Below, piece by piece: positions 7,507 to 47,100 of a DNA stretch of 64,000 nucleotides. The notes under the pieces are model-generated. The model saw only the letters and a list, made by a program, of their open reading frames with translations. It made no database searches and had not been told where the DNA came from. Numbering within the stretch: the stretch's first letter is position 1; each line of letters begins with the position of its first letter. The stretch covers positions 8,816 to 72,815 of the forward strand of contig CASEQD010000003.1 in NCBI GenBank assembly GCA_949289935.1, given 5' to 3'. The stretch comes from an uncultured Pseudomonadota bacterium (lineage in GTDB: Bacteria; Pseudomonadota; Alphaproteobacteria; RF32; CAG-239). Made by a program: the position numbers and the translations under genes.

Positions 7507-7511
7507 TGCCC

Positions 7512-7910
7512 TTACATTCCCAATAACTTAGAAGCAACATTGATATATTTTTTTCCGGCTTCCTGTGCGCCTTCCACTGCTTCTTTCAGAGATTTGTCTT
7601 TGCGGAGGGACGCTAATTTTATCAACATAGGCAGATTGATGCCGGCAATAATCTCAACCTTGGCTTTATCCATAATTGAAATAGCCAGATTGGACGGCGT
7701 GCCGCCGAACATATCTGTCAGCACAATGGCGCCGCTGCCTTTGTCTACTTCATCTACTTTATTTAAAATTTCACGGCGGCGGATTTCCATATCATCTTCA
7801 GGTCCGATGCATACTGCTTTTATCTGTTCTTGAGGACCGACAACATGCTGCATTGCAGAAATAAATTCTTCAGCCAGACGGCCGTGCGTTACCAAAACCA
7901 AACCTATCAT
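7512..7910 (-). CDS. PTS EIIA component, mannose family (the ORF track extends to 8045; probable start MIGLV)
   Basis: MIGLVLVTHGRLAEE... is an EIIA-Man fold with the catalytic His in the VTHG context. The 45 aa upstream extension has no similarity. Confidence 0.75.
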   Translation of the reverse strand: MIGLVLVTHGRLAEEFISAMQHVVGPQEQIKAVCIGPEDDMEIRRREILNKVDEVDKGSGAIVLTDMFGGTPSNLAISIMDKAKVEIIAGINLPMLIKLASLRKDKSLKEAVEGAQEAGKKYINVASKLLGM

Positions 7911-7938
7911 CTTCTCTGTTCTTCTTTCAAAAAAGTTA

Positions 7939-8358
7939 TTATGCCTTTTTGCCGCAACTCCAACAATGAACGGCGCCGAAACTTTTGATAAGTTCTTCCC
8001 GGCTCTTGGCTTTGACGATTTCATCGGCTCTTGTCCGCCGGCCATTTAAAACAATTTCTTCAACGTTTTCCACGGGGACGCCGTATGTACGGTTTACTAT
8101 TTTTCCCTCCAGCTCGACAATAAGGACAAATTCGGCCTCAGCCAAAGGTTCGCGGGTTTCTTCATGAATATCATCCAGCAAAACGGACAAACGGTCGTCT
8201 CTTTTCAGCAAAGCCCTGCTTTTTCCGTCAAACTCCAATACCGGATTTACGGGAGCATTGTCGCGGGCATCAATAAAAATAGCCAGTTCTCCGTATTTAT
8301 TTTCGATGATTTCGTAAAAATCCTGTTTTTCAATCAGTGTGTAATATTGATTTTCCAT
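7939..8358 (-). CDS. Hypothetical protein with C-terminal CxxC (HCWSCGKK)
   Basis: 139 aa acidic ORF occupying the position where hprK sits in Rhizobiales, but it lacks a P-loop. Confidence 0.4.
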   Translation of the reverse strand: MENQYYTLIEKQDFYEIIENKYGELAIFIDARDNAPVNPVLEFDGKSRALLKRDDRLSVLLDDIHEETREPLAEAEFVLIVELEGKIVNRTYGVPVENVEEIVLNGRRTRADEIVKAKSREELIKSFGAVHCWSCGKKA

Positions 8359-25036: not shown

Positions 25037-25633
25037 GTGGCCGGAAAAGACATAGAAAAACTAATCAAGCTGGTAGCCAAACTGCCGGCGCTGGGAACCA
25101 GATCTTCCCGCAGAATTGTTTTGCAGCTGCTGAAAAAAAAGGAATCGCTTTTTCTGCCTTTGATTGATGCAATGCAAAATGTTGCCGATAATATCAAAGT
25201 CTGTGATATCTGTGGTAATTATGACACGGAATCGCCCTGCTCCATTTGTGCTTCAACAACCCGGGACGCTCATCAGCTTTGCGTTGTTCAGGACGTGGCC
25301 GATTTATGGGCAATGGAGCGTGTTTCAATGTTTAAGGGAAAATATCATGTGCTGGGCGGAATTTTATCCGCTTTAGACGGTGTATCACCGGAAGATTTGA
25401 ATATTGAAAAACTTTTTTTGAGAATCGAAGAAGAAAATATCAGTGAAATTATTCTGGCTCTGCCGGCTACGATTGACGGGCAGATTACTTCAAACTATCT
25501 GCTTCAGCAGCTGAAAGATTCCGGCGTTAAAGTTACAACGCTTGCACAGGGAATTCCCATGGGAGCCGAGCTTGATTATATGGATGAAGGAACCATTCAG
25601 CTGGCGTTGAATTCACGAAAGGTTTTATCATGA
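25037..25633 (+). CDS. recR: Recombination protein RecR
   Basis: C4 zinc finger CDICGN...CSIC, plus Toprim and Walker-B-like regions. Confidence 0.95.
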   Translation: MAGKDIEKLIKLVAKLPALGTRSSRRIVLQLLKKKESLFLPLIDAMQNVADNIKVCDICGNYDTESPCSICASTTRDAHQLCVVQDVADLWAMERVSMFKGKYHVLGGILSALDGVSPEDLNIEKLFLRIEEENISEIILALPATIDGQITSNYLLQQLKDSGVKVTTLAQGIPMGAELDYMDEGTIQLALNSRKVLS

Positions 25634-26403
25634 AAAAATATGACGCGGCCATTCCTCTCGGAAATTTCTGTTCAGCCTCTTTTCATTTGAGGCATAATGG
25701 TTTGCAGGTTGAATCTTATCCGTTTGACTGGGTGGGATTTGACAGCGTGGTTATTCCGGCAACGCTGATTGCCAATGGTTTTAAAGATTTTTTTGTTCCG
25801 GAACGTTTGGAACGGGTTGAGGGAGAAAACGGCAACCATCTGCCTTATATTCAATATCCGGAACATTATCTGTTTTATCATTGCGTAGAAAAGGATTTGC
25901 CTTTTGAAGAGGCTTGTCAAAAGGCCAAAGCTATGTTTGAGCGTCGGATTGCCCGTTTATATGAGCATCTTGAAAAGGCTCGCAACATTTTATTTTTGAA
26001 TGCCAGCAATGATTCCGTCAGGGAAGAAGAAGCCATTGAAGCTCTGGAAATTTTGCAAAAAAAATTTCCCGGCAAGAATATAGACCTTATTGTTGTGGAT
26101 ATGAAGCCGGATTATCACAATTTGGAAATTAAGGAACTCAATGAGCATATTACTTTTGCCAAGCTGAATTTTCATAACAAAAAAAATGAATATTCCGACA
26201 GAAAAGAAGAATTTCAGATTTTGTTAAAAAACCGGAAATTAGCCTCGCAAAAAGAAGTTATCAGGCTTCGTCTGCATCGGAAATTTTTTGCGCTTAAGAG
26301 AGTTCTGGTCAATGCGCTTTGCTGCCTTATTCCGATAAAAAAAGCGAGAAAAGCCATTCGCAAAAAAATGCAGATTTCAACACAGGATTTTAATCATAAT
26401 TAA
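25630..26403 (+). CDS. Hypothetical protein with conserved N-terminal LGNFCSAS motif and a basic C-terminal tail (LCCLIPIKKARKAIRKK)
   Basis: 257 aa, no transmembrane segment. Shares the terminal basic motif with three sugar-modification proteins at 33.3-36.1 kb. Possibly DUF1796-like (from memory only). Confidence 0.4.
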   Translation: MKKYDAAIPLGNFCSASFHLRHNGLQVESYPFDWVGFDSVVIPATLIANGFKDFFVPERLERVEGENGNHLPYIQYPEHYLFYHCVEKDLPFEEACQKAKAMFERRIARLYEHLEKARNILFLNASNDSVREEEAIEALEILQKKFPGKNIDLIVVDMKPDYHNLEIKELNEHITFAKLNFHNKKNEYSDRKEEFQILLKNRKLASQKEVIRLRLHRKFFALKRVLVNALCCLIPIKKARKAIRKKMQISTQDFNHN

Positions 26404-26499: not shown

Positions 26500-26733
26500 T
26501 TTTTATGCGGTTGAATTGGCCGCTGAGGGCGTGACAACCCTTTATTCACATAGTCGTCGGCATAAACGACTTAAAATAAGAGTATGCTGATATCTGCTAT
26601 TTATGGGCGGATGTCAGCGTTATAAGGCTTTGCACGAAGACGCTGAGCCATTTATGTGAATATGGTTGTCAACATCCGTCCTCCTTTCCGGGAGGATTTT
26701 TTTGTTTTAACTAAAAAACAAGGATGTTGTAAC
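26500..26733 (+). promoter_or_regulatory. Structured 5' leader with intrinsic terminator and alternative antiterminator pairing (riboswitch/attenuator-like)
   Basis: Long-range helix TTATTCACATA (26538-26548) with TATGTGAATA (26655-26664). Internal hairpins GTCGT...ACGAC and GCTGATATC...GGATGTCAGC. Terminator UCCUCC-UUUCCG-GGAGGA plus U7 at about 26679-26705. The GGUUGUCAACAUCC strand can alternatively pair with GGAUGUUGUAAC overlapping the start codon region. Confidence 0.45.
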
Positions 26734-27642
26734 ATGAATACGAATTTCAAATTTTTATTTTCAGGGGCGGGATTGTTTTTAATTCCGCTGGCGGCTTCTG
26801 CACAATGCATAGCAACAACTGATTGTGCCACGTTAGGTTATACTGAAACATCTTGCCCAAACGGCAAAGGTATTAAATGTCCCTTTGGCGATACTTGGGC
26901 TTGTCCGACAACAGAAACAGAATTTTGCGAAAAATATGGTTTCAAATATGACTGTTCCGGTTCCGGATATAAAGGCGGCGGGGAGAGCTCCTGTAATGGG
27001 AAATATGCTTTTTGCAACTGCCAGAACGGATATGAATGGAAAGATGGAAAATGCCAGAGAAAAAGCATGATAGAAACTTCTTTGGGATATTGTTCCGGTT
27101 ATGCCAAGTTTTGCCGACTAGGTCAGTTGTTGAACAGCGACGGAACATGTACAGATAAAGAAGAACCCAATAAAAAACCAATCGGAACCGTAGCTTATAT
27201 TAGTGTTGAAGGCTGCGGACAAGCCATTGCTCCCGTAACATCAGCAGCATGGTCGACCGTAGATAACGAAACGGGCGCTTTTTCAACTATTTCTGCCGAA
27301 GAGGCCTGGAATGATTTTGACAGTTGCGGCAATACACAAAAAATTATTCAAAATGGAGATAAAAGTAAATATCCGGCGGCTTGGGCTGCTGTTGACTATG
27401 CTCCGGAAAATGCTCCGGAAACAAAAGGATTATGGTGTCTTCCCGCTGCCGGAGTATTTCATCATATGTATGAAAACAGAAATGTTTTTACAGATGACTG
27501 GTATTCCCGATGGTCGTCAACAGAATCTTCAGCATGGAATGCCTGGGAACTGGAATTTGATGATAAATACGGAACAGGAGGGATTGTCAGCTCTCGAAAA
27601 GATAATGGCAACCGTGAGGTTTGGGCCGTTATTGAATTTTAA
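26734..27642 (+). CDS. Secreted Cys-rich protein (the ORF track starts at 26656; real start MNTNFKF with AAGGA RBS)
   Basis: Signal peptide LFLIPLAASA; more than 25 Cys; repeated GYEWKDGKCQ-type modules; C-terminal VIEF. Paralogue of 16104-16886. Confidence 0.6.
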   Translation: MNTNFKFLFSGAGLFLIPLAASAQCIATTDCATLGYTETSCPNGKGIKCPFGDTWACPTTETEFCEKYGFKYDCSGSGYKGGGESSCNGKYAFCNCQNGYEWKDGKCQRKSMIETSLGYCSGYAKFCRLGQLLNSDGTCTDKEEPNKKPIGTVAYISVEGCGQAIAPVTSAAWSTVDNETGAFSTISAEEAWNDFDSCGNTQKIIQNGDKSKYPAAWAAVDYAPENAPETKGLWCLPAAGVFHHMYENRNVFTDDWYSRWSSTESSAWNAWELEFDDKYGTGGIVSSRKDNGNREVWAVIEF

Positions 27643-31861: not shown

Positions 31862-32322
31862 TGTCCGAAATATTCCCTTAAACGGCGGTTGTTTTCTTCA
31901 TTTTCTGAAAAAATTTCTATTCTGCGGCTTGAAGCATCCGGAAATATTTCCACCCGAAAACATTTTTTTGGCAGATACAAGCCCATTTTTTCCGGCCATT
32001 CTATCAGGCTTACCCCTTCATAAAGAGCTTCTTCCATTCCCAATTCAAAAATTTCATCCGGCATCTTGAGCCTATACAAATCAAAATGATAAATTGTAAA
32101 ATTGTCCGTATCATATAATTGTACCAGGGTAAATGTCGGACTCGGCACTTCTTCCCGGCCGGCAAGCTCCTGAATGAAGCCCCGCGCCAAAACGCTTTTT
32201 CCCATACCCAATGTTCCGAAAAGCGCAAAACAATCTCCTCTTCCGGCAAAATGTGCCAGTTTCTTACCGATATCAGTTGTTTTATCTTCCGAAGCAGAAT
32301 AAAAAATTATCTTATCAGACAT
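31858..32322 (-). CDS. tsaE: tRNA threonylcarbamoyladenosine biosynthesis protein TsaE (the ORF track extends to 32460; probable start MSDKII)
   Basis: GTLGMGKSVLARG P-loop and SPTFTLVQ motif. Confidence 0.85.
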   Translation of the reverse strand: MSDKIIFYSASEDKTTDIGKKLAHFAGRGDCFALFGTLGMGKSVLARGFIQELAGREEVPSPTFTLVQLYDTDNFTIYHFDLYRLKMPDEIFELGMEEALYEGVSLIEWPEKMGLYLPKKCFRVEIFPDASSRRIEIFSENEENNRRLREYFGQ

Positions 32323-33274
32323 CCAACAACCTCTTTTTGCGGGTTTTTTGTTTGATGATTTTAATTTTTGGCTTTTGCGCCTGCAATACTCTCCAATCCC
32401 AAGGCATATAAAATTCTCCCTGCCACAATCCGTTCCGGTTTGTCCGGGCATTTTCTTCATAAGGATAATAAATATCCGTATATTTCAGGTAAGCAACAGC
32501 CCAACCGGCATTAACAATCGCCGCTCCCAGATCGTATTGTCCCAAAGAACAGGTTCCGACCATGTTGCCGTTGTCATCCTGCTGCATTACCCGGCATTCG
32601 AGCACATTATCCTGAAGCCAGCTGCGTAGCCAGTTTCCAGCTTCTTCACCACAGCGGTATGCCCGGCCGTGCGCTCCGGCGCAAGTTTGATTGGTTTCAG
32701 GCGCATCTATGCCATATAAACGAAAATAAGCTCCGTTGATTTTTAAAGTGTCGCCATTAATAACTTTTGCGCTGCCATAAATTGCAGGAAAATCTTCCGG
32801 ATTGAAAATTTCTTCGTTTTCCTTACCCATCAGGGAATCGACAAATTGTTGAACGGTTCCCGGTTCGGAGACAGATTGTTCCGCATTGTCGGAAATGTCT
32901 GAAAAATTTTCAGAAGGCAACGCAGCCGGATTTTCCGCCAATTGTAATTTTCCGGAAACTTCCGTTCCGGATGTTTGCGCGCCTTGTCCCATAAAAGTGC
33001 GGATGTTGCGTCCGATGTTGGTAAAACCGTTGTTAAAACCGCCAATAGCGTAAATAATGAAACAAACTATTCCGCTGAAAATAAGAAACGACGGAAGACA
33101 TCCCATTGCCCGCCAAGCCATTTTGGTAAAAATATATAAAATTACCAAACCGATGATAAGGCCTATAAAACCACCACCCTGAAGCAAAAGGCTGTTGCTC
33201 TGGGTTCCGGCTCCGCCCCAAAGGATAAAAACAAAAGCGGCTATACCCAACAATACTTTTTTCAAAAAAAACAT
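32315..33274 (-). CDS. Membrane-anchored thermonuclease (SNase-like) family protein
   Basis: N-terminal TM helices; C-terminal staphylococcal-nuclease fold motifs YGIDAPE and GLWQG. Confidence 0.7.
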   Translation of the reverse strand: MFFLKKVLLGIAAFVFILWGGAGTQSNSLLLQGGGFIGLIIGLVILYIFTKMAWRAMGCLPSFLIFSGIVCFIIYAIGGFNNGFTNIGRNIRTFMGQGAQTSGTEVSGKLQLAENPAALPSENFSDISDNAEQSVSEPGTVQQFVDSLMGKENEEIFNPEDFPAIYGSAKVINGDTLKINGAYFRLYGIDAPETNQTCAGAHGRAYRCGEEAGNWLRSWLQDNVLECRVMQQDDNGNMVGTCSLGQYDLGAAIVNAGWAVAYLKYTDIYYPYEENARTNRNGLWQGEFYMPWDWRVLQAQKPKIKIIKQKTRKKRLLDV

Positions 33275-33336: not shown

Positions 33337-33933
33337 TTATTTTTCCATATATTTTTTATAACCGCTAACCCGTTCCCATTCTATGCCGTCGCATTGAAAA
33401 TATTTTTGTTCTCTTTCAAGCCGGTCATATTCTTTTATATTTCTCCATCCGATTATTTTTGCCGGATTTCCTCCGATGACAGCACATTTCGGAACAGATT
33501 TCGTTACAACTGAACCTGCAGCCACAACAGCTCCTTCCTCAATCTTAACGCCCGCTAAAATCAGGCTGTTTGAGCCGATCCAGACGTTTTTTTCCAGATA
33601 TACTTCCTGAAGAAAACCTTTTTTATCAAAAGGAAGCGCCGAAGCCTGTTTAAAATTATGGGCCGTGGTAAGAATTGTTACGTTTGCGGCAAGCGTGGCA
33701 TTATCTTCCAGAACAAGCCCGCCTTCCGCATAAATGTTGACATTTTTGCCTATATAAACATTTTTGCCCATTTTTATATTTTCAGGATTATGCAGATTTG
33801 CTTCGCGGCTGACATGGCTTTCCGGATATTCCGGGCAAAACAAAAAATAATGACGGTTTTTCAATCGCAGTTTTTTGCGAATTTTTTTCAGCGGAATCAA
33901 ATTAATCAGAAATTTTTTTAATCTTACAGGCAT
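33337..33933 (-). CDS. Hexapeptide-repeat (LbH) sugar O-acetyltransferase
   Basis: Left-handed beta-helix repeats (IGKNVNIY..., IGSNSLILAGVKIEEGAVVAAGSVV). N-terminal basic LIPLKKIRKKLR motif. Confidence 0.75.
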   Translation of the reverse strand: MPVRLKKFLINLIPLKKIRKKLRLKNRHYFLFCPEYPESHVSREANLHNPENIKMGKNVYIGKNVNIYAEGGLVLEDNATLAANVTILTTAHNFKQASALPFDKKGFLQEVYLEKNVWIGSNSLILAGVKIEEGAVVAAGSVVTKSVPKCAVIGGNPAKIIGWRNIKEYDRLEREQKYFQCDGIEWERVSGYKKYMEK

Positions 33934-33942
33934 TTTTATTCC

Positions 33943-34908
33943 TCAAAAATTTCCCCGCAGAATATTGCGGAATTTCTTTCTGTATGCCTTAACCGGCGTT
34001 ATCCGGCTAAGCAGGTACCATAACGGATTAAACAGGCTTAAAAAGATTTTTTTCTTTCTTGATTTTTGATATTCGAAAAAATAAGGCGACTGCCGGATAT
34101 AGTCGTAATAATCCGGAGCCGGCTTGATTTTTTTCCACATTTTTACAATAGCGCCGGCATAGTGGACGATTACCGGACTTTCTATGGCCGCATCAATTTC
34201 AGCATCAGAATAAACATTGCGCAAAAATTTGTATTCTGCCGTTGCCTGATATTTTCCATAATAAACATTTTCCAAAACACAATATTCAAATCCCAGCGGC
34301 TTAATTTTATCACAGGACAAATTCATAACTTCAAGATCAAACATTTTCAGGCGGTTTTTATGCTTATGCATATTGGCAAAAAATTTATTGACAATATTAT
34401 CTTCCCGACATTTTTTATTGTTAAAAACAATCAACCCCGAAAAGAAAATGAAATCGCCGGTATATTCTTCATAATGCTGGTGAATGCCGTTTAATTCGTC
34501 CGTTCGTTCCGCCGCAACGGCACCTATTTGATAATTGGAATAATCCTGATTGAATAAATGGCTTAAATCGCCTTTAAACATGACATCAACATCAGAATAA
34601 ACGACTTTGTCATATTGAGAAAGCACTTCCGGAATAATCAGCCGGTAATAAACCTCATACGGCCAAGCTGGAGATTTCGGCGCCTGATTAAACCTGTTGT
34701 TGTCGATTTTGATAAAAGTTATTTTTGCCCGGTCGGTTTGCAAATCTGCAAACAGTTTTTGATTTTCTTCACTCAGCCGTGAATATAAAATAAAGATATG
34801 ATAAAAAGTTACACGTTCCGCACAGGCTATCAACGACTTTACGGCAATCCACGCCGGAAGTCTGAAATTATCATCAAAGCAAAAAACAACGGGGATTTCG
34901 TTTTTCAT
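33943..34908 (-). CDS. Glycosyltransferase family 8 (LPS/LOS alpha-1,3-hexosyltransferase-like)
   Basis: IPVVFCFDDNF N-terminus and DxD VYSDVDVMF, as in RfaJ/Lgt-type GT8 enzymes. C-terminal basic tail ITPVKAYRKKFR. Confidence 0.8.
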   Translation of the reverse strand: MKNEIPVVFCFDDNFRLPAWIAVKSLIACAERVTFYHIFILYSRLSEENQKLFADLQTDRAKITFIKIDNNRFNQAPKSPAWPYEVYYRLIIPEVLSQYDKVVYSDVDVMFKGDLSHLFNQDYSNYQIGAVAAERTDELNGIHQHYEEYTGDFIFFSGLIVFNNKKCREDNIVNKFFANMHKHKNRLKMFDLEVMNLSCDKIKPLGFEYCVLENVYYGKYQATAEYKFLRNVYSDAEIDAAIESPVIVHYAGAIVKMWKKIKPAPDYYDYIRQSPYFFEYQKSRKKKIFLSLFNPLWYLLSRITPVKAYRKKFRNILRGNF

Positions 34909-36122
34909 TATTTTTTCCTTTGTATTGCATCAATGGTCTGCCGCAAATTTTTTTCGGATTTTGTTGCGACGGAAACAGCATGCCGCTCCAAAGCCCGGCA
35001 AACGGAAGCATATTCCTTTTCTTTCATATTAATGGCTTTTTTCATGGCTTCATATAATTCATCTCCTTGATAAAGAACAGCATCTTTTGCAGAAAACCCA
35101 TAAACATCGGCAAAAGTTTGTTCTATCAGCATTGGTTTGTTCAACCCCAAAGACAGCTGTTTTGAACCGGTGGTTGTGCCGTTTTTATAGCTTTTTTGCT
35201 GCGGACTGTCCGGATCAAGCAAGGCCAAAAGAAAATCGCTTTTCATGCAGTTATGGTACATATCGTTAAAATTCAGACGTCCCAGCTTTTTTATGTGCCT
35301 TTTTAAGGCTTCGGGGACAGCCATTCCACCGGAACCAATGACCAGAACTTTAAAGTTTTTGATATTTTCATTTATTAACTTTTCAACCGCCGCCAACAAT
35401 TGAGAACAATTTCTGGTGTTGGGGGACAAACGTCCGATCATAACAAAACAGGTTTTGGCATTTTTTTTATGCACCGGAATTTTTCCGAAATATATCGGAC
35501 AGAGAAGCTTTGCTTTGTCTTTTGCCAAAGGAAAATCATTCAGAACAAAAAGGCGTTTTCCCAAATATTTTTCGTTTTCATCATAAGGTTCGATATTTTG
35601 GCAATTGTGATAAACGCACAGAGCCCCAAAACGACTTTGAGGTTCGCTTCCCAAGTAGTCAAAATAACGCTCTTTGGTTTCCTGATAATCAAACGAAGAG
35701 ACAAAAACAAAGTCATAATTTTTGATGATTTTGTTTTTCAGAATTTGGGAAACCCTCCATTTTTGCAAGGGATAGACTGCCGGAAGTTCGTTTTTCTTAA
35801 ATAAAGCAAACGGATTTTCTTCATAATTGGAAATCCGCAGAACAACATCAACATTATATCCCAAATTCTGCCAGTATTTTACAAAACCGGGAACAATTTC
35901 TCCGTGATAATTATTTGGTTCAACGAGCAAAACTGTTTTTGGTTTAACGGCATGATTTAGAAAATCTGTATAAAAATGGTTATATTTTTGATAATTGCAC
36001 AGAATTTTTTCCGCATTAAATTCCTTAAGAGAAGCTATGGCTTTTTTTCTGTATTTTTTGACAGGAATCCAGCAGCAAAGCATTTGAGCCAGTTGTTTCT
36101 TCATGTGAAACCTCATTGTCAA
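34908..36122 (-). CDS. Putative GT-B-like glycosyl/phosphotransferase, uncharacterised family
   Basis: 404 aa with two Rossmann-like halves (…VLLVEP…, …FVMIGRL…VLVIGSGG…). N-terminal LCCWIPVKKYRKK motif. Stop/start overlap with the GT8 gene. Confidence 0.45.
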   Translation of the reverse strand: MTMRFHMKKQLAQMLCCWIPVKKYRKKAIASLKEFNAEKILCNYQKYNHFYTDFLNHAVKPKTVLLVEPNNYHGEIVPGFVKYWQNLGYNVDVVLRISNYEENPFALFKKNELPAVYPLQKWRVSQILKNKIIKNYDFVFVSSFDYQETKERYFDYLGSEPQSRFGALCVYHNCQNIEPYDENEKYLGKRLFVLNDFPLAKDKAKLLCPIYFGKIPVHKKNAKTCFVMIGRLSPNTRNCSQLLAAVEKLINENIKNFKVLVIGSGGMAVPEALKRHIKKLGRLNFNDMYHNCMKSDFLLALLDPDSPQQKSYKNGTTTGSKQLSLGLNKPMLIEQTFADVYGFSAKDAVLYQGDELYEAMKKAINMKEKEYASVCRALERHAVSVATKSEKNLRQTIDAIQRKK

Positions 36123-36226
36123 TTAAGAATAATATTCTTTTTAGCAAAGTTTGCGCCTGAGGTCAATCAATTATCTTTATTTGTTTTGTTTCAAAAAAAA
36201 TACCGGAGATTTTTCTCCGGTATTTT

Positions 36227-37216
36227 TCAGTCGACAATTTTCATGGTAAATTTTTCTTCCGGTTCCGGAACAGAATCAGAAACAGGTGAGGATGAAACCA
36301 TATTTCCGACATTTTTCCGATTTTGTTCCAACAAATCTATGATTTTATCCAGTTCGGCTATTGAAGAATATTCCAAAACAACTTTTCCATTTCCCTGTTT
36401 TCCCTGACTGATTTTTATTTTCAATCCCAGAGATTTGTTCAGAGATTTTTCGATATCCATCAAATCCTGATTAACTTCTTTTTTGTTTTTCTCCCGGGGA
36501 GCGGCGTTTTTGAGTTTGTTAACCAACTCTTCAACCTGACGGACGTTTAAGTCTTTTTTGATGATTAGTTGCGCCAGTTCTTCGGCATTTTCCAAACCGA
36601 CAAGGCTGCGGGCATGTCCGGCAGAAAGTTTTCCTTCCTTAATCAGGTTTTGTACACTTTCGGGCAAAGTTAAAAGACGCAGAGTATTGGCAATATGGCT
36701 GCGGGATTTTCCGACAATTTTGGACAAGGCTTCCTGAGTGTGGGAAAATTCATTTATCAGACGCTGCAGCCCTTCTGCTTCTTCTATGGCAGAAAGGTTT
36801 TCCCGCAACAGATTTTCGATTAAGGCAACTTCCAAAACTTCCTGATCGCTCATTTCTTTGATAATAACCGGAACTTCTTTCAGTCCTGCAATTTTTGACG
36901 CACGAAGACGCCTTTCTCCGGCAATCAGTTCATATCCGTTTTCACTGCGGCGGACAAGAAGCGGCTGTAAAACACCTTTTTCTTTTACAGAATCGGCAAG
37001 CGCCTGAAGAGCTTCTTCGTCAAACTCGGTTCTGGGCTGGAAAGGACTGGCTTTAATTGAAGAAATATCAACATAATTTGCCTTGTTGTCTGAAACTTTT
37101 TTTTCTTCTGCCGAAAATTCATCCAAATCAAAATCTATTTCATCATCTCCCAACAAAGCGCCCAAACCGCGCCCGAGGCTTTTTCTTTTTCCATGATTTT
37201 CATTTTCTGCCGACAT
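36227..37216 (-). CDS. parB: Chromosome partitioning protein ParB
   Basis: ParB box GERRLRA and the HTH region. Confidence 0.95.
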   Translation of the reverse strand: MSAENENHGKRKSLGRGLGALLGDDEIDFDLDEFSAEEKKVSDNKANYVDISSIKASPFQPRTEFDEEALQALADSVKEKGVLQPLLVRRSENGYELIAGERRLRASKIAGLKEVPVIIKEMSDQEVLEVALIENLLRENLSAIEEAEGLQRLINEFSHTQEALSKIVGKSRSHIANTLRLLTLPESVQNLIKEGKLSAGHARSLVGLENAEELAQLIIKKDLNVRQVEELVNKLKNAAPREKNKKEVNQDLMDIEKSLNKSLGLKIKISQGKQGNGKVVLEYSSIAELDKIIDLLEQNRKNVGNMVSSSPVSDSVPEPEEKFTMKIVD

Positions 37217-39614: not shown

Positions 39615-40235
39615 TCATTTAATCGCTAAAAAATTATAAATATCATTTTGACATTTCTCATCAAAGAAAGATTTAATTTCGTATAAATCTTTCTTTATAT
39701 TATTTAACTGTTTCAAAGGGATTTGATACTCTGCAGAGACGGACTGAATCCGACTGTCAATTGAACAAATTTTTCCCGCGTTGTTCATCATATTGCACAA
39801 AGAGATGAGCTTGTCATAATCATCAAAAGAAAAATTTTCCATTATTTTACGGCATTCAGGAATGAAATCCTGCAAATGAGGATAATCTTCGTCACGGAAA
39901 TTTTCCGTATAAAAACTATGAGTCAGGCAAACTTTGGCAACCTCATCATATCCTAAAGACATCATATAATGATAGCCAACCACTCCGTGAAAAATATGTT
40001 CTTTCTTTTCATCAAGGATATATCCACAATCATGCAGCAGTCCCAAGACATAAGCTTTTTCATGATTTAAATATTTTGTTTTTTTAGCAAATATTTCGGC
40101 AACCATACCGACATCCCGGCTATGAGCCCGAAAAGCTATTTCAGCTTTTTCAGAAAAAGGATATTGTGTGGCATTTCTTACATCTATTATTTTATTCAAA
40201 ATGTTTTCGGCTTCTTTTTTGCTTGGACAGCTCAT
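39615..40235 (-). CDS. HD-domain phosphohydrolase (paralogue 1)
   Basis: H...HD (GLLHDCGY)...H..H...D signature; about 40% identical to the neighbouring paralogue. Confidence 0.7.
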   Translation of the reverse strand: MSCPSKKEAENILNKIIDVRNATQYPFSEKAEIAFRAHSRDVGMVAEIFAKKTKYLNHEKAYVLGLLHDCGYILDEKKEHIFHGVVGYHYMMSLGYDEVAKVCLTHSFYTENFRDEDYPHLQDFIPECRKIMENFSFDDYDKLISLCNMMNNAGKICSIDSRIQSVSAEYQIPLKQLNNIKKDLYEIKSFFDEKCQNDIYNFLAIK

Positions 40236-40244
40236 TTGTTTCCC

Positions 40245-40259
40245 TTTAAATACAGTGTT
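40245..40259 (+). repeat. Motif copy TTTAAATACAGTGTT at the HD2/HD1 junction (supplies the HD2 stop codon)
   Basis: Exact match. Confidence 0.9.
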
Positions 40260-40884
40260 AAAATTCGTCTTTTATCTCTAACAACTTGTAAATATCACAA
40301 CCGCATTTCTCATCAAAATATTTTTTGTTTTTTACAGCATTGTCATAAAAATTTTTTGTATCTGTTTCTTTTAAATTGTAGCGAAAGGAGATGCCTTTTA
40401 TTCGTTTTTTTATACAGACTTTTTCCAAACCTTCAAAAAACAAATCACATAATTGGACTAGACGGTCGTAATCGTTAAAGATTAAAGAACTCATTTTTTC
40501 TTTTGCCCAAAGAAGCCATTCTTTTTTATAAGACGGATAGTCATTATCTTTGAAATCCGGAGCATAAAAGCTATGAGTCAGGCAAACTCTGGCAACATCA
40601 TCATACCCCATAGCCATCATAATTTCATAACCTTCCCGCCCGTGAAAACGTCCCGTAATTTTTTCGGAAATTCGTTTTCCATAATCGTGAAGTAATCCGA
40701 GAGCATAAGCTTTTTCAACATTCAGCTCAGAGCAATTTTCGGCAATAATGCGACAGCAGCGCCCTACTCCCCGGGAATGAAAAATATATTCATCTTTCTC
40801 AGGAAAAGGATAATGTGTTTCTCTGTATAAAACACCTTCTTTCCATATTTTTTCAGCATTTCTGATACTCGGATATTTTTTCAT
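40258..40884 (-). CDS. HD-domain phosphohydrolase (paralogue 2)
   Basis: GLLHDYGK and the same layout as 39615-40235, including the shared CLTHSFY and FDEKC..DIY motifs. Confidence 0.7.
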   Translation of the reverse strand: MKKYPSIRNAEKIWKEGVLYRETHYPFPEKDEYIFHSRGVGRCCRIIAENCSELNVEKAYALGLLHDYGKRISEKITGRFHGREGYEIMMAMGYDDVARVCLTHSFYAPDFKDNDYPSYKKEWLLWAKEKMSSLIFNDYDRLVQLCDLFFEGLEKVCIKKRIKGISFRYNLKETDTKNFYDNAVKNKKYFDEKCGCDIYKLLEIKDEF

Positions 40885-40900: not shown

Positions 40901-42753
40901 TATTTTTTTATATATCCCAGAATTGCCGTAACGGCGGCAGGGGTTACCCCCGGAATGCGGGAAGCTTCTCCAATGGTTGCCGGTTTGACTTTGGTTAACT
41001 TTTGTACCATTTCACGGGATAAACCTCCTATTTTTTTATAATCAATATCTTCTCTTATTTTTAAGTTTTCATCTTTTTTGAAAACTTCAATATCTGCTTT
41101 CTGGCGTTTAATATATCCGGCATAGCGGGCTTCTATTTCTATTTGTTCATAAATTTCATCTGGAACAGAAAATAAATCAGGCCAAAGATCATTGATTGTT
41201 TCACGTGAAACATTATCATAAGACATTATATTATATGCAGTCCGTTTGGTACCGTCCTGCTTGACTTTTATTCCTCTTTTTTCAAGTTCAGACGGTTTGG
41301 TTATCAGTTTTTCACAAAGAGTGCGACATTGGTTTAATTTTTCCTGTTTTGCTTTAAATACAGTGTATCGTTTTTCAGAAACACATCCTGTCTGCCAACC
41401 TTTTTCAGTCAGACGCAAATCAGCATTGTCAGCTCTGAGTAATAAACGATATTCAGAACGAGAAGTAAACATTCTGTATGGTTCATCAACGCCTTTGGTG
41501 ATAAGATCGTCAATCATAACACCTATATATCCTTCGCTACGGTCAACAGTAAATTCCCGCCCTTCTTTTCTTGCCATTAAAGCCGCATTAATTCCGGTAA
41601 CAATTCCCTGAGCGGCAGCTTCTTCATAGCCGGTTGTTCCGTTAATTTGTCCTGCTAAAAAAAGTCCCGGGACTTTTTTACATTCCAACCTGTGATTTAA
41701 TTCCTGCGGATCAACATAATCATATTCTATGGCATAGGCATAGCGCAGAATTTTGACATTTTTCAAACCATCCATGGTGTGAATAAAATCTTCCTGCACA
41801 TCAGCCGGAAGAGATGTTGATATTCCGTTTGGATAAACAACTTTGGAATTATAGCCTTCAGGTTCAAGAAAAATCTGATGACTGTTACGATCCGGAAATT
41901 TTACCAGTTTATCTTCAATACTTGGGCAATAACGCGGGCCAACCCCTTTTATCAATCCGGAAAACAACGCACATTTTTCAAAATTATCCCGAATAATCTG
42001 ATGTGTCTTTTCATTAGTATGAGTAATTGCGCATTGTATTTGTGGTTGAAGAATATCTTTTGTTAAAAAAGAAAAAGGAACAGGTTTTTCGTCTCCGTTT
42101 TGTTTGGGTAGTGATTCCCAATCTATGGAATCAAAATCCAACCGGGCAGGGGTTCCTGTTTTTAATCTTCCTGTTTTTAGTCCAAAAGCGTTTAAATACG
42201 GTGTTATTCCCATACAAGAAACATCATTTACCCGTCCTCCAACCGTTGTCTGATGACCGGTGAACATTATTCCGTTTAAAAAAGTTCCTGATGTGAGAAT
42301 GACCGTTTCTGATTTTATTTCGGTTCCGTCTGCCAGAATAACACCACATATTTTTTCTTTATCAGACAATAAACCTTCGACAGATGCTTCAATAAGTGTT
42401 AAATTTTTTTGTTTTTGCAAAGCTTCAAGCATATATTTTTTATACAAATCTCTGTCTGCCTGCGCACGCGGTCCACGAACCGCCGGCCCTTTTGATGCAT
42501 TCAGCATGCGAAACTGTATGCCTGCTTTATCAATAACCTGAGCCATTAATCCGTCAAGAGCATCTATTTCCCTGACAAGATGTCCTTTTCCCAAACCACC
42601 GACGGCCGGATTGCAGGACATTTCTCCTATTGAGGAAATTTTATGCGTAATCAAAGCCGTTTTTGCACCTATACGAGCTGACGCGGCACAAGCTTCACAT
42701 CCGGCATGTCCTCCGCCAACAACTATTACATCAAATTTCTGATTATTGTTCAT
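40900..42753 (-). CDS. mnmG: tRNA uridine 5-carboxymethylaminomethyl modification enzyme MnmG (GidA)
   Basis: FAD-binding [13 protein letters not shown]; 617 aa. Confidence 0.97.
41197..41212. promoter_or_regulatory. parS site (TGTTTCACGTGAAACA) inside mnmG
   Basis: Exact palindromic consensus. Confidence 0.85.
41353..41367 (+). repeat. Motif copy TTTAAATACAGTGTA inside mnmG
   Basis: 14/15 match. Confidence 0.8.
42191..42205 (+). repeat. Motif copy variant TTTAAATACGGTGTT inside mnmG
   Basis: 14/15 match. Confidence 0.8.
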
Positions 42754-42868
42754 TTATTCAAATGTCCAAAAATAAATATTGTTTTAAGGGTTTACAACAG
42801 GTTATATAATTTAGCAAGAGATTAATTTGTTAAAAAAAGCTTTTTTTAAACAAATTACGGACATAAAG

Positions 42869-42883
42869 TTTAAATACAGTGTT
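42869..42883 (+). repeat. Motif copy GTTTAAATACAGTGTTATTTT at the mnmE 3' end (supplies the mnmE stop codon)
   Basis: Exact match with extended flanks. Confidence 0.9.
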
Positions 42884-44225
42884 ATTTTCCAATACAAAAA
42901 CTACCGAATATCTTATCAAGAATTTCATCTATCTCTATTTGTCCGGTAATTTTTCCTATTTCCCGCGCAGCTAAACGAATATCTTCAGCCGACAACTCTA
43001 TTTCTTTATTCAGATTAAACAAACTAAGCGATTGTAAAGCTTCTCTTAAAGCTTCACGGTAGCGTGTGCGGGTTATGAGAAGACTTGAGTTTGAGGTAAA
43101 TTTATCATTGATAACCGAACTTATTTTATTAAGAATAATATCAATTCCTTTCTGTTGTTTAACAGAGATCAGAGGAATTCCCTGCTTTTGAATTTCGGAA
43201 CACTGTTCTTTTGTTAAAGCATCACATTTGTTGGCAAAAAAGAACATTTTGTTTTTAAATGATTTTTCAATATTTTCAAAGACCTGAACAGTGTCTTGAG
43301 ATGCATCAAACAAACAAAGAAGAAAATCAGCATCTTTTATTTTTTGATAAGCAATTTCAACGCCCTGGCGTTCAATAGCTTCTTCAGTTTCTCTGATGCC
43401 TGCCGTATCCGTGATAATTACGGGATAACCGTTTAAGTCTAAATGAATATCAACAGCATCGCGGGTTGTACCGGCAACATCGGAAACAATGACGACGTCT
43501 CTTTTAGCTATGGTATTCAGCAAACTCGATTTTCCAGCATTCGGACGTCCAACGATGACAACACGAAAACCTTCCCGCAAGCGTTCACCTATATTATCTT
43601 CTTCCAAATGCCCTTTTATTTCTTCCCGCAGTTTAAATACAGTGTTATTTATATTAGAAACAATATCTTCGGGAATTTCTTCATCGGGAAAATCAATATA
43701 GGCCTCAAGGTATGCCATAATATTAAGTAGCCGGGCTCGCCAGTCTTCATATAAATTTTTCAGGCTGCCTTCCATTTGCCGCAAAGCATATTGCTGCTGC
43801 GCTTTTGTTTCGGCATCTATTAAATCAGCGAGGCCTTCAGCCTCGGTTAAATCCATTTTTTGATTATAAAAAGCCCGTTTTGAATATTCACCGGGTTCAG
43901 CCAGACGAAATCCGGGGATGAGGCTGAGATTTTCAAGAACTGTTGCAATAACAGCCCGGGAACCGTGTGTCTGTAATTCAACAATATCTTCTCCGGTAAA
44001 AGAATTTGGCGCTCTAAAGTAAAGCAACAAACATTTATCAAGAGTTTGTCCGGTTTTTATATCTTTCAGATTAGTAAAATAGGCATAACGCGGTTTAATA
44101 TCAGCAAGGCTTATGTTTGTCATTAATCTGACTACCTGCAAAGCTTCGCTGCCTGAAATGCGAATAACGGCAACACCCGATTTTCCCAATACGGTAGATA
44201 AAGCATAAATTGTTTTATTGTCCAT
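42882..44225 (-). CDS. mnmE: tRNA modification GTPase MnmE (TrmE)
   Basis: G1 GRPNAGKSSL, G3 DTAG, C-terminal CIGK. Confidence 0.97.
   Translation of the reverse strand: MDNKTIYALSTVLGKSGVAVIRISGSEALQVVRLMTNISLADIKPRYAYFTNLKDIKTGQTLDKCLLLYFRAPNSFTGEDIVELQTHGSRAVIATVLENLSLIPGFRLAEPGEYSKRAFYNQKMDLTEAEGLADLIDAETKAQQQYALRQMEGSLKNLYEDWRARLLNIMAYLEAYIDFPDEEIPEDIVSNINNTVFKLREEIKGHLEEDNIGERLREGFRVVIVGRPNAGKSSLLNTIAKRDVVIVSDVAGTTRDAVDIHLDLNGYPVIITDTAGIRETEEAIERQGVEIAYQKIKDADFLLCLFDASQDTVQVFENIEKSFKNKMFFFANKCDALTKEQCSEIQKQGIPLISVKQQKGIDIILNKISSVINDKFTSNSSLLITRTRYREALREALQSLSLFNLNKEIELSAEDIRLAAREIGKITGQIEIDEILDKIFGSFCIGK
43631..43645 (+). repeat. Motif copy GTTTAAATACAGTGTTATTTA inside mnmE
   Basis: Exact match with extended flanks; encodes NNTVFKL. 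Confidence 0.9.
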
Positions 44226-44420
44226 AACAAATTCCTGATAAAAATTTTGTTTATTATCGGTATATTAAAATTCAAAAATTTATGCAAGTTTTTAAAAATC
44301 CGTTTTTAAGGACTCCTCAGCGTTTTTTTAAGTTTATTTAACCAAAGTATCATAGAGTATTTAAAATTCTTTTGTACGGGCTTTATACGGACTCGTTTTT
44401 TTCACTTAAAGGTTTTTGAT

Positions 44421-45098
44421 ATGAAAAACAAACTACAATTAATTATTTGGGATTTTGACGGCGTTATTGCCGATTCCGAAAAAATATGGCTGGAAAACCG
44501 TAGAGTTTTTTTTAAAGAGCGTTTAGGCGTTGATTGGAATTTTGAAACAATCAACAAATATTTCGGCGGAACAAGCGATAAAACAAAAAAACAAATTTTA
44601 AGCCGTCTGGGATATGAAACCGATGAACAATTCTGGAAAGATGTTTTGGACAGAGATGTTGCTTTTATGAAAAAACACGGAATTGAAAAAATGCCCGGCG
44701 TTGAAAAGATATTGGTAGACAAAAGATTTAAGCATTGTGTGGCAACCGGTGGAACAAAAGCAAAAACAAAGTTGAAAACAGACATTATCGGTTTGGAAAA
44801 GTTCATTCCCGAACATCATGTTTTTACGGTCGACAATGTTGAAAAAGGAAAACCAGAGCCTGATTTGTTTTTATTTGCAGCGGAAAAAATGGGAGAAAAA
44901 CCGGAAAACTGTCTGGTTATCGAAGATTCAATAGCCGGAATGACCGCGGCGCAAAGGGCGGGAATGAAAGTTGTTGCCTTTTTGGGAAGCAGTATTTATC
45001 AAAATGAAGACTATTTACAAAAAGTCAAAAAATTAGGAATTAAAGATATCTTTTATAATATGAAAGATTTATATGAGTTTATAAAAATTAATGTTTGA
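44421..45098 (+). CDS. HAD-superfamily hydrolase (beta-phosphoglucomutase/phosphatase-like)
   Basis: Motif I DFDGVIADSE, with a later K and a DD-containing motif. Confidence 0.75.
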   Translation: MKNKLQLIIWDFDGVIADSEKIWLENRRVFFKERLGVDWNFETINKYFGGTSDKTKKQILSRLGYETDEQFWKDVLDRDVAFMKKHGIEKMPGVEKILVDKRFKHCVATGGTKAKTKLKTDIIGLEKFIPEHHVFTVDNVEKGKPEPDLFLFAAEKMGEKPENCLVIEDSIAGMTAAQRAGMKVVAFLGSSIYQNEDYLQKVKKLGIKDIFYNMKDLYEFIKINV

Positions 45099-45805
45099 CA
45101 AAAAATGTGCGAAAGATTAGATTGAGGGCGTTAAATTTATTACTAAATTTTATAATTATGGATAAAAAAGTTTTTGAATGGTACAGAAACGGCCTCAGCG
45201 CCCAAAAGAAAGCCGAAGAAGAACTTGAACTTCTGACTTCTGCTGAAAAAAATCTAAAAACAGAGAAAGAGATTATAGCCTCTTTTAAGGATTGCTATCT
45301 TAAGATAAAGGAATCCGGCAAACAAATGGCTGAAGCTGCTTTGCTATTGTTTCAACAATCTTTCCCCAAAAACGTCAAAGATTTTGAGGATGGCGGCATG
45401 CATCAATTTTTCAGCAATATCCGCATGCATCCTGAAATGTTGAAAGGATGTGAAAACAAACTTTTTCTTTTAATCAAAAAGGCAGCCGAACCAGGTAATG
45501 CAAATTCCTTTTCTTGGTGTTGGAGTCCGGTTTATGCCGTTTTAACCGAAAAAGAGATTAAGGATTTTGTTTTGAACAATTATTCAGAAGATTTTGCTGC
45601 TATGGTTTCTTCTTTATCTTTACACTTGGATCCGATTGGCGGTGATGATGAGGAGAGGGCGGTTGCTTTCTTTACATCATTAGGACAGTTTGAAGAAAAG
45701 AATCCGGGAATTGTGCAAAAAAGTCTGGATAATCTTCTTAAAGATGTAAATTTTTACAGAAGCAGCTGGGTAGCAAAGGTGGTTGATTTTTATCATCAAA
45801 ATTAA
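45095..45805 (+). CDS. Hypothetical protein (probable start 45158, MDKKVF)
   Basis: Helical, no recognisable motif; coupled to the upstream HAD gene by a 4-nt overlap. Confidence 0.4.
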   Translation: MTKNVRKIRLRALNLLLNFIIMDKKVFEWYRNGLSAQKKAEEELELLTSAEKNLKTEKEIIASFKDCYLKIKESGKQMAEAALLLFQQSFPKNVKDFEDGGMHQFFSNIRMHPEMLKGCENKLFLLIKKAAEPGNANSFSWCWSPVYAVLTEKEIKDFVLNNYSEDFAAMVSSLSLHLDPIGGDDEERAVAFFTSLGQFEEKNPGIVQKSLDNLLKDVNFYRSSWVAKVVDFYHQN

Positions 45806-45810
45806 TAAAA

Positions 45811-45849
45811 AAAGAGAGGTGTTTTAGCAAACATCCTCTCTTTTTTTTA
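45811..45849. terminator. Bidirectional rho-independent terminator between the hypothetical gene and rho
   Basis: AAAGAGAGG-loop-CCTCTCTTT followed by T8. Confidence 0.65.
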
Positions 45850-47100
45850 ACTATTCATATTATTGAAAAAATCCTGGTTGTTTTTGGATATTTTTAATTT
45901 ATCCAGCAAAAATTCCATTCCGTCCGTCATTCCCATCTGCATCAAAACGCGACGGAGAACCCACATTTTAGCCAAGGTCTGACGATCAACCAAAAGTTCT
46001 TCTTTGCGTGTTCCCGAACGAGTAATATCAATGGTCGGAAACAAACGTTTGTCAACAAGTTTCCGGTCAAGAATAATTTCGGAATTGCCCGTTCCCTTGA
46101 ATTCTTCAAATATAACCTCATCCATACGCGAACCTGTATCAATCAAAGCCGTAGCAATAATAGTCAGAGATCCGCCTTCTTCAACATTTCTCGCAGCTCC
46201 CAGTAGGCGTTTCGGACGTTGCAGGGCATTGGCATCCACACCGCCGGTCAGCACTTTTCCGGAAGAAGGGATAACCGCGTTATAGGCTCGTCCCAAACGG
46301 GTTATAGAATCCAAAAGAATGACAACATCTTTTTTGGTTTCAACCAATCTTTTGGCTTTTTCAACCACCATTTCGGCAACCTGAACGTGACGTGTTGCCG
46401 GTTCGTCAAAAGTTGAAGATATAACTTCACCTTTGACGGAGCGCGTCATATCCGTTACCTCTTCCGGGCGCTCATCTATAAGTAAGACCATCAGATAGAC
46501 TTCAGGGTGGTTTTCGGCAATGGCATGGGCTATATTTTGCAGCATAACCGTTTTACCTGTCCGGGGCGGGGCGACAATCAATCCGCGTTGTCCTTTTCCC
46601 TGAGGGGCAACCAAATCAATAACCCGGGTGGTATAATCTTTTTCACCGCAGATAATATCAAAATTCAGTTTTTCCGTAGGATAAAGCGGTGTCAGATTGT
46701 CAAAATTAACACGAAGTTTTGATTTTTCCGGATCTTCAAAATTTATTTTATTAATTTTTGTCAGAGCAAAATAACGTTCATTTTCTTTCGGAGCTCTGAT
46801 TTCACAATCGACCGTATCACCTGTTCTTAATCCGAACTTTTTTACCTGAGCCGGTGAAACATAAATATCATCAGGACTGGCCAGATAATTGGATTCAACC
46901 GAACGCAAAAATCCAAAGCCATCGGGTAAAACTTCAATTGTACCGTTTCCGTATATAATTTCATCATCGGAAGCTACTTTTTTCAGAATTGCAAAGATAA
47001 GATCCTGAACACGCATTGAAGATGCATCTTCAATGCCCAGCTCTTCAGCCTGGGTTAAAAGCTCTTTCGGAGACTTTTGTTTTAATTCTTGTAAGTGCAT
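45847..47100 (-). CDS. rho: Transcription termination factor Rho (the ORF track extends to 47187; start MHLQELK)
   Basis: N-terminal [15 protein letters not shown], the RNA-binding OB domain, Walker A PPRTGKT, 418 aa. Confidence 0.97.

Follow-up and report, generated by a model that had tools for sequence, protein, structure and literature searches.

A proline-kinked basic-hydrophobic-basic terminal peptide, probably a membrane anchor, is shared by three glycan enzymes and a DUF1796 protein of an uncultured alphaproteobacterium

The closest described counterpart of the peptide reported here, which stands at one end of four proteins encoded in a 64,000-nucleotide stretch of DNA from an uncultured alphaproteobacterium of the gut (contig CASEQD010000003.1, positions 8,816 to 72,815; hereafter the window), is the C-terminal region that was deleted from the glycosyltransferase BoGT6a and called its membrane-association BHB (basic-hydrophobic-basic) domain (PMC3516806). 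Full-length BoGT6a aggregates, and does so less once this domain is removed, which is why the crystals were made without it; the enzyme without its tail was enzymatically characterised and transfers GalNAc (PMC3516806). As cited in that paper, the BHB domain of bacterial GT6 enzymes is credited to Brew, Tumbale and Acharya (2010). PimA, LpxB and LpxK likewise have terminal amphipathic anchors (PMC6286764), the Helicobacter pylori alpha-1,3/4-fucosyltransferases use C-terminal amphipathic helices as anchors (PMC4202792), and the C-terminal appendage of TagA folds on the membrane and gives arginines to the active site (PMC6493773). In the window the peptide, hereafter the tag, is carried by the three products of one operon, a GT-B-fold transferase, a GT8 glycosyltransferase and a hexapeptide-repeat acetyltransferase, and by a DUF1796 protein encoded near recR. 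We propose that BHB-type terminal anchors hold these soluble-type glycan enzymes at the inner membrane and that the DUF1796 protein is held likewise, a reading to which we give a probability of about two in three.

The first gene of the operon (34908..36104, minus strand) encodes the GT-B-fold transferase, which carries the N-terminal tag MKKQLAQMLCCWIPVKKYRKKAIASLK (36024..36104, minus strand). It is followed by the GT8 gene (33943..34908, minus strand; 321 residues), whose product ends with the C-terminal tag FNPLWYLLSRITPVKAYRKKFRNILRGNF (33946..34032, minus strand), and then, second after the GT-B gene, by the gene of the hexapeptide-repeat (left-handed beta-helix) acetyltransferase (33337..33933, minus strand; 198 residues) with the N-terminal tag MPVRLKKFLINLIPLKKIRKKLRLKNRHY (33847..33933, minus strand). 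The DUF1796 gene lies apart from these and overlaps the end of recR (25630..26403, plus strand; 257 residues); the C-terminal tag of its product is KRVLVNALCCLIPIKKARKAIRKKM (26296..26370, plus strand). All four peptides had been quoted in an earlier note on this DNA and were found as written at the ends of the four proteins. Each is matched by the regular expression [ILVT]P[ILV]K[KA].RK[KA], and a hidden Markov model (HMM) of the tag scores them at 37.7, 30.0, 28.7 and 33.5 bits in the order given.

The regular expression, which was derived from the four peptides themselves, has exactly four matches in a six-frame translation of the window, all at the named sites; further carriers, which the earlier note had thought worth seeking, were found in loci of other genomes. 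By comparison, the window simulated 100 times with a first-order Markov model yielded 0.01 matches on average, and 300 residue-shuffled versions of the 64 proteins predicted from its open reading frames (ORFs) gave none. Every one of the four sites is at most about 35 residues from a protein end; with uniform placement this would occur with a joint probability of about 0.004. Synonymous codon differences among the four copies (CCT/CCG, AAA/AAG and AGA/CGC) indicate selection on the peptide, with conservation at the protein level and no DNA repeat; a repeat or recombination scar was ruled out on these grounds. Runs of seven A occur in three of the four coding stretches (36040-36060, 33880-33915 and 26335-26370), where they come from consecutive AAA lysine codons, and the GT8 tag has AAG, GCA and AGA codons instead and no such run. 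These runs could in principle promote slippage or ribosome sliding, but phase variation through them was rejected because they are short and a consequence of the AAA codons.

To describe the anatomy of the tag, 26 examples were aligned on the proline. The leader is hydrophobic at positions -9, -8, -6, -5, -2 and -1, often with a basic residue at -7, and hydrophobic residues follow the proline at +1, +4, +8 and +12 (spacing i, i+3, i+4). Proline occupies position 0 in 26 of 26 examples and basic residues occur at +2 (96%), +5 (Arg in 25 of 26), +6, +7 and +9, frequencies that are inflated by the retrieval of several examples with a pattern requiring K-K-x-R-K-K; examples found by homology are more degenerate (LVPKRKWRQY and YPRSLRKKIR, for instance). 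The tag thus reads as helix-kink-helix, with both helices predicted to be amphipathic and the second showing a narrow apolar stripe flanked by lysine and arginine. In three of the four window peptides the basic half reaches hydrophobic moments of 0.64-0.82, in the GT-B tag the moment peaks at 0.51 and does so in the leader half, and net charges range from +7 to +11. In both AlphaFold models the helix is interrupted precisely where the tag has its IP(V/I)K: in the GT-B model helix 2-9 is separated from helix 16-27 by a break at CCWIPV, and in the DUF1796 model helix 207-231 is separated from helix 237-246 by a break at LIPIK. None of the four proteins has a transmembrane segment (no 19-residue hydropathy window above 1.6; in the same scan the neighbouring membrane nuclease reaches 2.35), and no Pfam or NCBIfam model matches the peptide in any of them.

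We then asked how widely the tag occurs. A 29-position tag HMM made from 23 examples was searched against 2,490 ORFs (1.48 Mb of collected loci) and gave 50 matches with an independent E-value below 1e-3, 49 of them at a protein terminus. By Pfam assignment the carriers belong to at least 12 families of glycan enzymes and come from several phyla. C-terminal tags were found on GT8 (the window and loci L002-L009), on DUF1796 (the window, with an independent example in L068), on a polysialyltransferase-like protein (P0060), on GT2 (L125 and L028) and on GT6 (L128). N-terminal tags were found on the unclassified GT-B family to which the window protein belongs (the window, L011, L015 and L030), on hexapeptide acetyltransferases (the window, L031 and L126), on a TagF-like glycerophosphotransferase and a GT10-like protein (both in L015), on FkbM methyltransferases (L134 and L133), on LicD (two adjacent genes in L144) and on GT4 (L012). 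The host groups include Alphaproteobacteria, Acidaminococcales (Negativicutes), Muribaculaceae (Bacteroidota), Gastranaerophilales/Melainabacteria and Brachyspira. A tag on at least 12 families in many phyla marks a class of enzyme, and by itself the shared peptide cannot assign the four window proteins to a single pathway.

Searches of larger libraries were less productive. A profile of the four window peptides gave only 10 matches with E below 1e-3 against 1.84 billion representative sequences, because a 30-residue profile cannot reach significance in so large a library, and its top match (P0054) is an unrelated repeat protein. A word-index homology search with the alignment of 23 tag sequences returned 148 candidates and one match, such an index being ill-suited to short motifs. 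A degenerate DNA pattern retrieved 120 stretches from metagenome contigs, of which about eight are real and the rest chance matches in short ORFs; the same pattern without its leading leucine codon gave 30 matches in viral contigs, none of them real, and these serve as a negative control since they lack the hydrophobic leader and do not lie at the ends of enzyme-length ORFs. Neither a search of the tag profile against all PDB sequences nor a tblastn search of one tag against plasmids gave a real match, and a literature search with tag strings found no relevant paper.

Several truncated or rearranged carriers were seen in the course of this work. In L133, just downstream of an IS630-like transposase reading frame, a 76-codon remnant with a C-terminal tag (7039-7266) is followed by an FkbM methyltransferase gene with an N-terminal tag (7354-8121), a tail-then-head arrangement like that of GT8 and the acetyltransferase in the window. 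Two short proteins, P0058 (119 residues) and P0053 (194 residues), have a DUF1796-type tail (…LLCCLVPVKRIRHKIRKKFNIST…) behind unrelated N-terminal sequence and are probably gene fragments or assembly chimeras.

The GT6 carrier allows the tag to be compared directly with the BHB domain. This protein (L128) is a close homologue of BoGT6a (E 1.8e-58), the 246-residue BoGT6a crystal construct ends where the L128 tail begins, and the roughly 40 residues that follow contain the tag (...RERAEVRIMKFICPFIPIKKLRKKVRNFYRGL). The L128 tag therefore fills the region that was cut from BoGT6a, which makes it the BHB domain by position and composition. The four window peptides fit the same description, each being a terminal basic-hydrophobic-basic peptide on a glycan enzyme without a transmembrane helix, as in the bacterial glycosyltransferase for which the BHB domain was described, and the role proposed for both is membrane association in the synthesis of lipopolysaccharide (LPS) O-antigen. 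In contrast to the BHB domain, which in the account cited above is C-terminal and belongs to GT6, the present tag may be N- or C-terminal, occurs on at least 12 families and is also found on folds that are not glycosyltransferases (acetyltransferase, FkbM, LicD and DUF1796). A blastn search of the GT6 gene against Escherichia coli genomes, made in search of WbnI, gave no match.

For GT8 a likeness exists by description: the GT8 enzymes LgtC and WaaJ reportedly have C-terminal basic/aromatic membrane-association tails, an observation attributed to Persson et al. 2001 and Leipold et al. 2007, and the window GT8 is of the same family and also has a C-terminal tail. The LgtC/WaaJ tail is said to have been removed to obtain soluble protein for crystallography; our literature search on WaaJ/LgtC membrane association found no relevant paper. 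The H. pylori fucosyltransferases resemble the present carriers in being GT-B enzymes without a transmembrane domain that have two terminal amphipathic helices (PMC4202792), and the GT10-like protein of L015 carries the present tag; their tails, however, follow heptad repeats and are C-terminal, whereas the tag of the GT10-like protein is N-terminal. With TagA, PimA, LpxK, MinD and FtsA the tag would share reversible peripheral binding to the membrane through a basic amphipathic helix and the placing of the enzyme beside its lipid-linked substrate (PMC6493773, PMC6286764). The helices of those proteins are family-specific and not conserved in sequence across families, whereas the present tag is one recognisable sequence over many families with an invariant proline kink. 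In all, the tag belongs to an already described kind, the BHB domain, and the finding is real and largely ordinary, the interpretation first given to it being right for the most part; what is new but modest is the use of the tag at either terminus and by at least 12 families, the unclassified GT-B family, and a first functional context for DUF1796.

In the mechanism that we propose, the GT-B transferase, GT8 and the O-acetyltransferase would extend and acetylate a lipid-anchored surface glycan at the cytoplasmic face of the inner membrane, adding two sugars and one O-acetyl group to LPS, lipooligosaccharide (LOS) or another lipid-linked glycan. Each enzyme would use a terminal BHB-type peptide of about 25-30 residues in place of a transmembrane segment, made up of a short amphipathic leader helix, the invariant proline kink and a second amphipathic helix (K+2, R+5, K+6/+7, R+9). 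This peptide would lie in the interface of the cytoplasmic leaflet with its hydrophobic faces buried and its basic side chains on anionic lipid head groups, and would thereby keep the catalytic domain beside the membrane-bound acceptor. As a module the anchor could work at either terminus and on many unrelated families of glycan enzymes, and the DUF1796 protein encoded near recR, with the same anchor, would be a further modifying enzyme of the same line.

That the peptide might dock enzymes on the membrane had been suggested when it was first noticed, and this part of the suggestion gains support from the anatomy of the tag, from the lack of transmembrane segments and from the positional identity with the BHB domain (PMC3516806). 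It gains support as well from homologues of the GT-B protein: four Bacillota homologues (L024, L026, L027 and L029) have an N-terminal helix of transmembrane grade at the position of the tag (hydropathy 1.74-2.24), compared with 0.43-0.65 at this position in diderm homologues. This natural swap of the tag for a transmembrane-like helix supports an anchoring role, and a membrane-docking anchor is most likely what the peptide is.

Several points weigh against the reading. Membrane binding by the peptide is deduced from sequence and models, and the equivalence with the BHB domain rests on position and composition in a homologue of BoGT6a. A simple positive-inside reading of the Firmicutes helix would make the catalytic domain extracellular, an arrangement that would be odd for an enzyme that uses nucleotide-sugars. 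Conservation of the tag (Pro 26/26, Arg+5 25/26, figures inflated by the retrieval pattern) goes beyond what a generic amphipathic anchor needs and leaves room for a specific partner. One relative (L009) keeps the operon and apparently lacks DUF1796 at the recR position. Finally, there is no gene for an initiating transferase, a flippase or a ligase near the operon, so that the operon must act on an acceptor made elsewhere; on the other side, the genes for LptD and SurA in the window demonstrate LPS export by this organism and count for the reading, and the LPS/LOS core is a reasonable guess for the acceptor.

The strictness of Pro, K+2, R+5 and R+9 over unrelated families and phyla is unusual, and neighbouring genes are often both tagged (GT8 and the acetyltransferase here, two LicD genes in L144). 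Both facts could be taken to mean that the peptide is a sequence-specific address that docks the enzymes on undecaprenyl-pyrophosphate or on a common protein partner, such as a transporter, a scaffold or a polymerase, to form a multi-enzyme machine. We consider this unlikely. The carriers act in pathways with different export machinery (TagF-like, LicD, polysialyltransferase-like and LOS-type GT8) and in phyla as distant as Alphaproteobacteria, Negativicutes, Bacteroidota, Melainabacteria and Brachyspira, so that one common protein partner is improbable; no candidate gene for such a partner lies near the operon, the Firmicutes homologues have a plain hydrophobic helix instead of the tag, and the conservation figures are biased by the way in which the examples were collected.

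An alternative with a poorer chance still is that the tail serves chiefly in catalysis, supplying arginines for the active site or the acceptor phosphate as in TagA (PMC6493773), with tethering secondary. The tag is N-terminal on some folds and C-terminal on others (GT-A, GT-B, beta-helix, methyltransferase, LicD and DUF1796), and is therefore unlikely to reach every active site equivalently; although the invariant Arg+5 and the basic ridge could bind pyrophosphate or the phosphates of lipid A, BoGT6a still transfers GalNAc without its tail (PMC3516806).

The N-terminal tags also look somewhat like Sec signal peptides or lipoprotein signals, with an MKK start or basic N-terminus followed by 8-12 hydrophobic residues and, in two of the copies, an LCC (Cys-Cys) motif. 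That they function as such is very improbable, for the same motif is C-terminal in GT8 and DUF1796 (two of the four copies), and after a short hydrophobic stretch comes KKxRKK in place of a cleavage site. There is also no lipobox-type residue before the cysteine, and Cys-Cys is missing from the acetyltransferase and GT8 tags. The donors of these enzyme families, moreover, are cytoplasmic nucleotide-sugars or acetyl-CoA. As for a low-complexity coincidence among lysine-rich protein ends, the genome is AT-rich, lysine makes up 8.4% of the encoded residues and most raw matches of the DNA pattern in metagenomes and viral contigs are due to chance, but we attach next to no weight to it, given four sites against about 0.01 expected, chance matches that neither have a hydrophobic leader nor stand at the ends of enzyme ORFs, and a tag that withstands the shuffling controls and is kept in orthologues, being among the best-conserved stretches of DUF1796.

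The link between the DUF1796 protein and the operon was originally drawn from the tag, which is too generic to carry it; the link itself is backed by other evidence. In an alphaproteobacterial metagenome-assembled genome (MAG) from yak rumen, one uninterrupted ORF of 1,845 residues (L023:2801-8338, plus strand) fuses GT8 (residues 18-323), the GT-B family (314-652) and DUF1796 (868-1012). Pfam recognises GT8 at E 1.9e-42 and DUF1796 at E 5.5e-8 in this ORF, and BLAST relates it to the window proteins at E 6e-45, 8e-26 and 2e-9. Its further modules include an SGGxDS (PP-loop-type) stretch near residue 1286 and a module of some 120 residues that is repeated and has the motif RFPVWxDYKSIKIxGKE; the ORF carries no BHB tag, and on its domain content the protein looks like a multi-domain polymerase. 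A GT-B::GT8 fusion with a single C-terminal tag occurs in another MAG (L016). Two unrelated DUF1796 genes also adjoin glycan genes, one for a GT-D glycosyltransferase (L068) and one for RmlD (L183).

This context argues for a role of DUF1796 in glycan assembly, as judged from gene fusions and neighbours, and against the peptidase role in its Pfam name; the DUF1796 protein most likely works as a fourth enzyme in an assembly line of this kind. More tentatively, and with less than even confidence, we suggest a wider interpretation. DUF1796 would be an unrecognised catalytic module of surface-glycan synthesis without a solved fold relative, forming with GT8 and the unclassified GT-B family a recurring three-module unit that exists as separate BHB-tagged proteins in gut alphaproteobacteria or as one polymerase-like protein of 1,845 residues in a rumen relative; the BHB tag would be a sequence-specific, proline-kinked address on at least 12 families, and glycan enzymes of the membrane interface could be predicted from it genome-wide.

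The DUF1796 assignment expected for the 257-residue protein was borne out by HMM search (PF08795, 54.3 bits against a cut-off of 23, E 1.8e-14, residues 7-142), and that of the operon's first protein, then read as 404 residues, to a GT family was not, its scores staying below thresholds. The AlphaFold model of the DUF1796 protein (predicted local distance difference test, pLDDT, 87.8) has no Foldseek match in the PDB at E below 0.01. Its weak matches are Rossmann-like or G-domain-like and none of the 50 listed is papain-like, so that the Pfam label "putative papain-like cysteine peptidase" is unsupported by the fold. A literature search on DUF1796 and PF08795 found nothing useful. Directly downstream of the DUF1796 gene lies a gene for a cysteine-rich protein of 328 residues (26656-27642, plus strand) without a Pfam match, which has a hydrophobic N-terminal segment, possibly a signal peptide. 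In the relatives this protein is represented only by shorter ORFs of 35% identity (L002 and L003), and it is apparently missing in L009.

The assignment of the operon to a GT-B-like protein, a GT8 and a hexapeptide acetyltransferase, made earlier from the letters of the sequence, holds by Pfam, NCBIfam, PDB relatives, AlphaFold and Foldseek. The AlphaFold model of the GT-B protein (pLDDT 93.8) has two Rossmann-like domains, and Foldseek places PimA first (2gej, E 1.2e-11, TM 0.58-0.63), followed by MshA, GlgA (glycogen synthase), BshA and WaaG. In Pfam the protein stays below threshold for Glycos_transf_1 and Glyco_trans_1_4 (17.1 against 26.4 and 21.1 against 27), and the E-x7-E motif of GT4 is found nowhere in it; it was consequently filed as an unclassified GT-B family and not as GT4. 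This family is small (42 database relatives), mostly confined to gut and rumen MAGs of several phyla, and has the invariant residues E62, H67, E69 and H166. In one of its sub-branches (L010 and P0012-P0022) LVxDKxKRxKIRR stands in place of IPxKKxRKK, and a Gln/Asn-rich, coiled-coil-looking segment of 40-100 residues is inserted between this stretch and the catalytic domain.

GT8 is recognised by PF01501 over residues 7-261 (119.4 bits against a cut-off of 24.3, E 2.5e-34), has its DxD motif at D106-V-D108 within VVYSDVDVMF, and counts the GT8 domain of WbbM, 3tzt and LgtC among its PDB relatives. Among NCBIfam models the nearest to it is LPS 3-alpha-galactosyltransferase, at 66.6 bits where 461 are required, and its specificity was consequently left unassigned. 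With a cut-off of 27, the acetyltransferase scores 50.6 bits for Hexapep and 54.3 bits for Hexapep_2. All models of named enzymes stay below their cut-offs (the WcaF family 69.5 against 192, WbbJ 67.2 against 243, LacA 66.8 against 347, and Maa), which places it in the WcaF/WbbJ/LacA/Maa group at the family level only.

The order parA-parB, GT-B, GT8, acetyltransferase, SNase and tsaE is kept in eight species-level genomes, and the relatives are labelled in GTDB as "uncultured Azospirillum sp. UMGS63" or "uncultured Alphaproteobacteria". The tag is kept as well: at the N-terminus of the GT-B orthologues and of an Acidaminococcales homologue, at the C-terminus of the GT8 orthologues, in the form KKFLINLIPxKSxRKKLR in the acetyltransferase of all eight related species (L003 counted), and in the DUF1796 tail, which is among the best-conserved stretches of that protein across orthologues. 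Genes of the GT-B family in other phyla belong to large polysaccharide loci, where GT8 and acetyltransferase genes often accompany them. Three of the eight relatives have GT8 swapped for a GT8 of 37% identity with the variant tail YPRSLRKKIR (L006:9197-10150, L007:9197-10150 and L008:5708-6661). In L006 and L007, the two compared at the DNA level, the match to the window breaks off inside the 5' end of GT8 or a little upstream of it and picks up again no more than 4 nucleotides from the acetyltransferase start, a clean cassette exchange that fits glycan variation between species. As GT8 is exchanged as a cassette, the locus is a likely source of surface-glycan variation in these poorly known alphaproteobacteria of the human and animal gut.

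The 29-position tag profile picks out peripheral-membrane glycan enzymes whatever their fold, and a curated model of the tag would allow better annotation of the loci for capsules, LPS and teichoic acids in uncultured bacteria of the gut. The tag also shows where such enzymes can be truncated for soluble expression, as was done for BoGT6a, and for DUF1796 its fusion to GT8 and GT-B and its place beside GT-D and RmlD genes provide the first concrete functional context.

The three genes of the operon are closely packed. The earlier note had described a 4-nucleotide ATGA overlap followed by a 9-nucleotide gap; the gap, between the GT8 stop and the acetyltransferase start, is as described, but the GT-B stop and the GT8 start share a single nucleotide in TAATG (TAA 34910-34908, ATG 34908-34906). 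An ORF of 404 residues (34908-36122, minus strand) results if the TTG at 36122 is used as the start of the GT-B gene; the real start is likely the ATG at 36104, which gives 398 residues and matches the call on the identical ENA contig. The flanks are as originally named, parB upstream (36227-37216, minus strand) and a membrane nuclease gene downstream, both confirmed by Pfam, contig annotation and hydropathy; the latter encodes an SNase-domain protein (32315-33274) with a hydrophobic segment of transmembrane grade. Directly after the parB stop a hairpin can be read from the sequence (CCGGAG-AAAAAT-CTCCGG, then eight T; 36193..36220, minus strand), which suggests that the three genes are transcribed apart from parAB and probably separates the two transcripts. 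A scan for promoter and terminator consensus sequences was uninformative and did not list this hairpin.

The sign of the GC skew flips near 44 kb (window about 42000-46000) and gene orientation diverges at the same place, mnmE, gidA, gidB, parA and parB being on the minus strand and the genes from 44421 onward on the plus strand, which suggests a replication origin about 8-10 kb from the operon. Between gidA and gidB (39615-40884, minus strand) two tandem paralogous HD/HDOD-domain genes (206 and 208 residues) and a PHP-domain gene break up the usual gidA-gidB-parAB block. Further along the window (55285-56682, plus strand) a gene encodes a protein of the ADP-dependent phosphofructokinase/glucokinase family (PF04587, E 1e-71), which is characteristic of archaea and eukaryotes and seldom found in Alphaproteobacteria.

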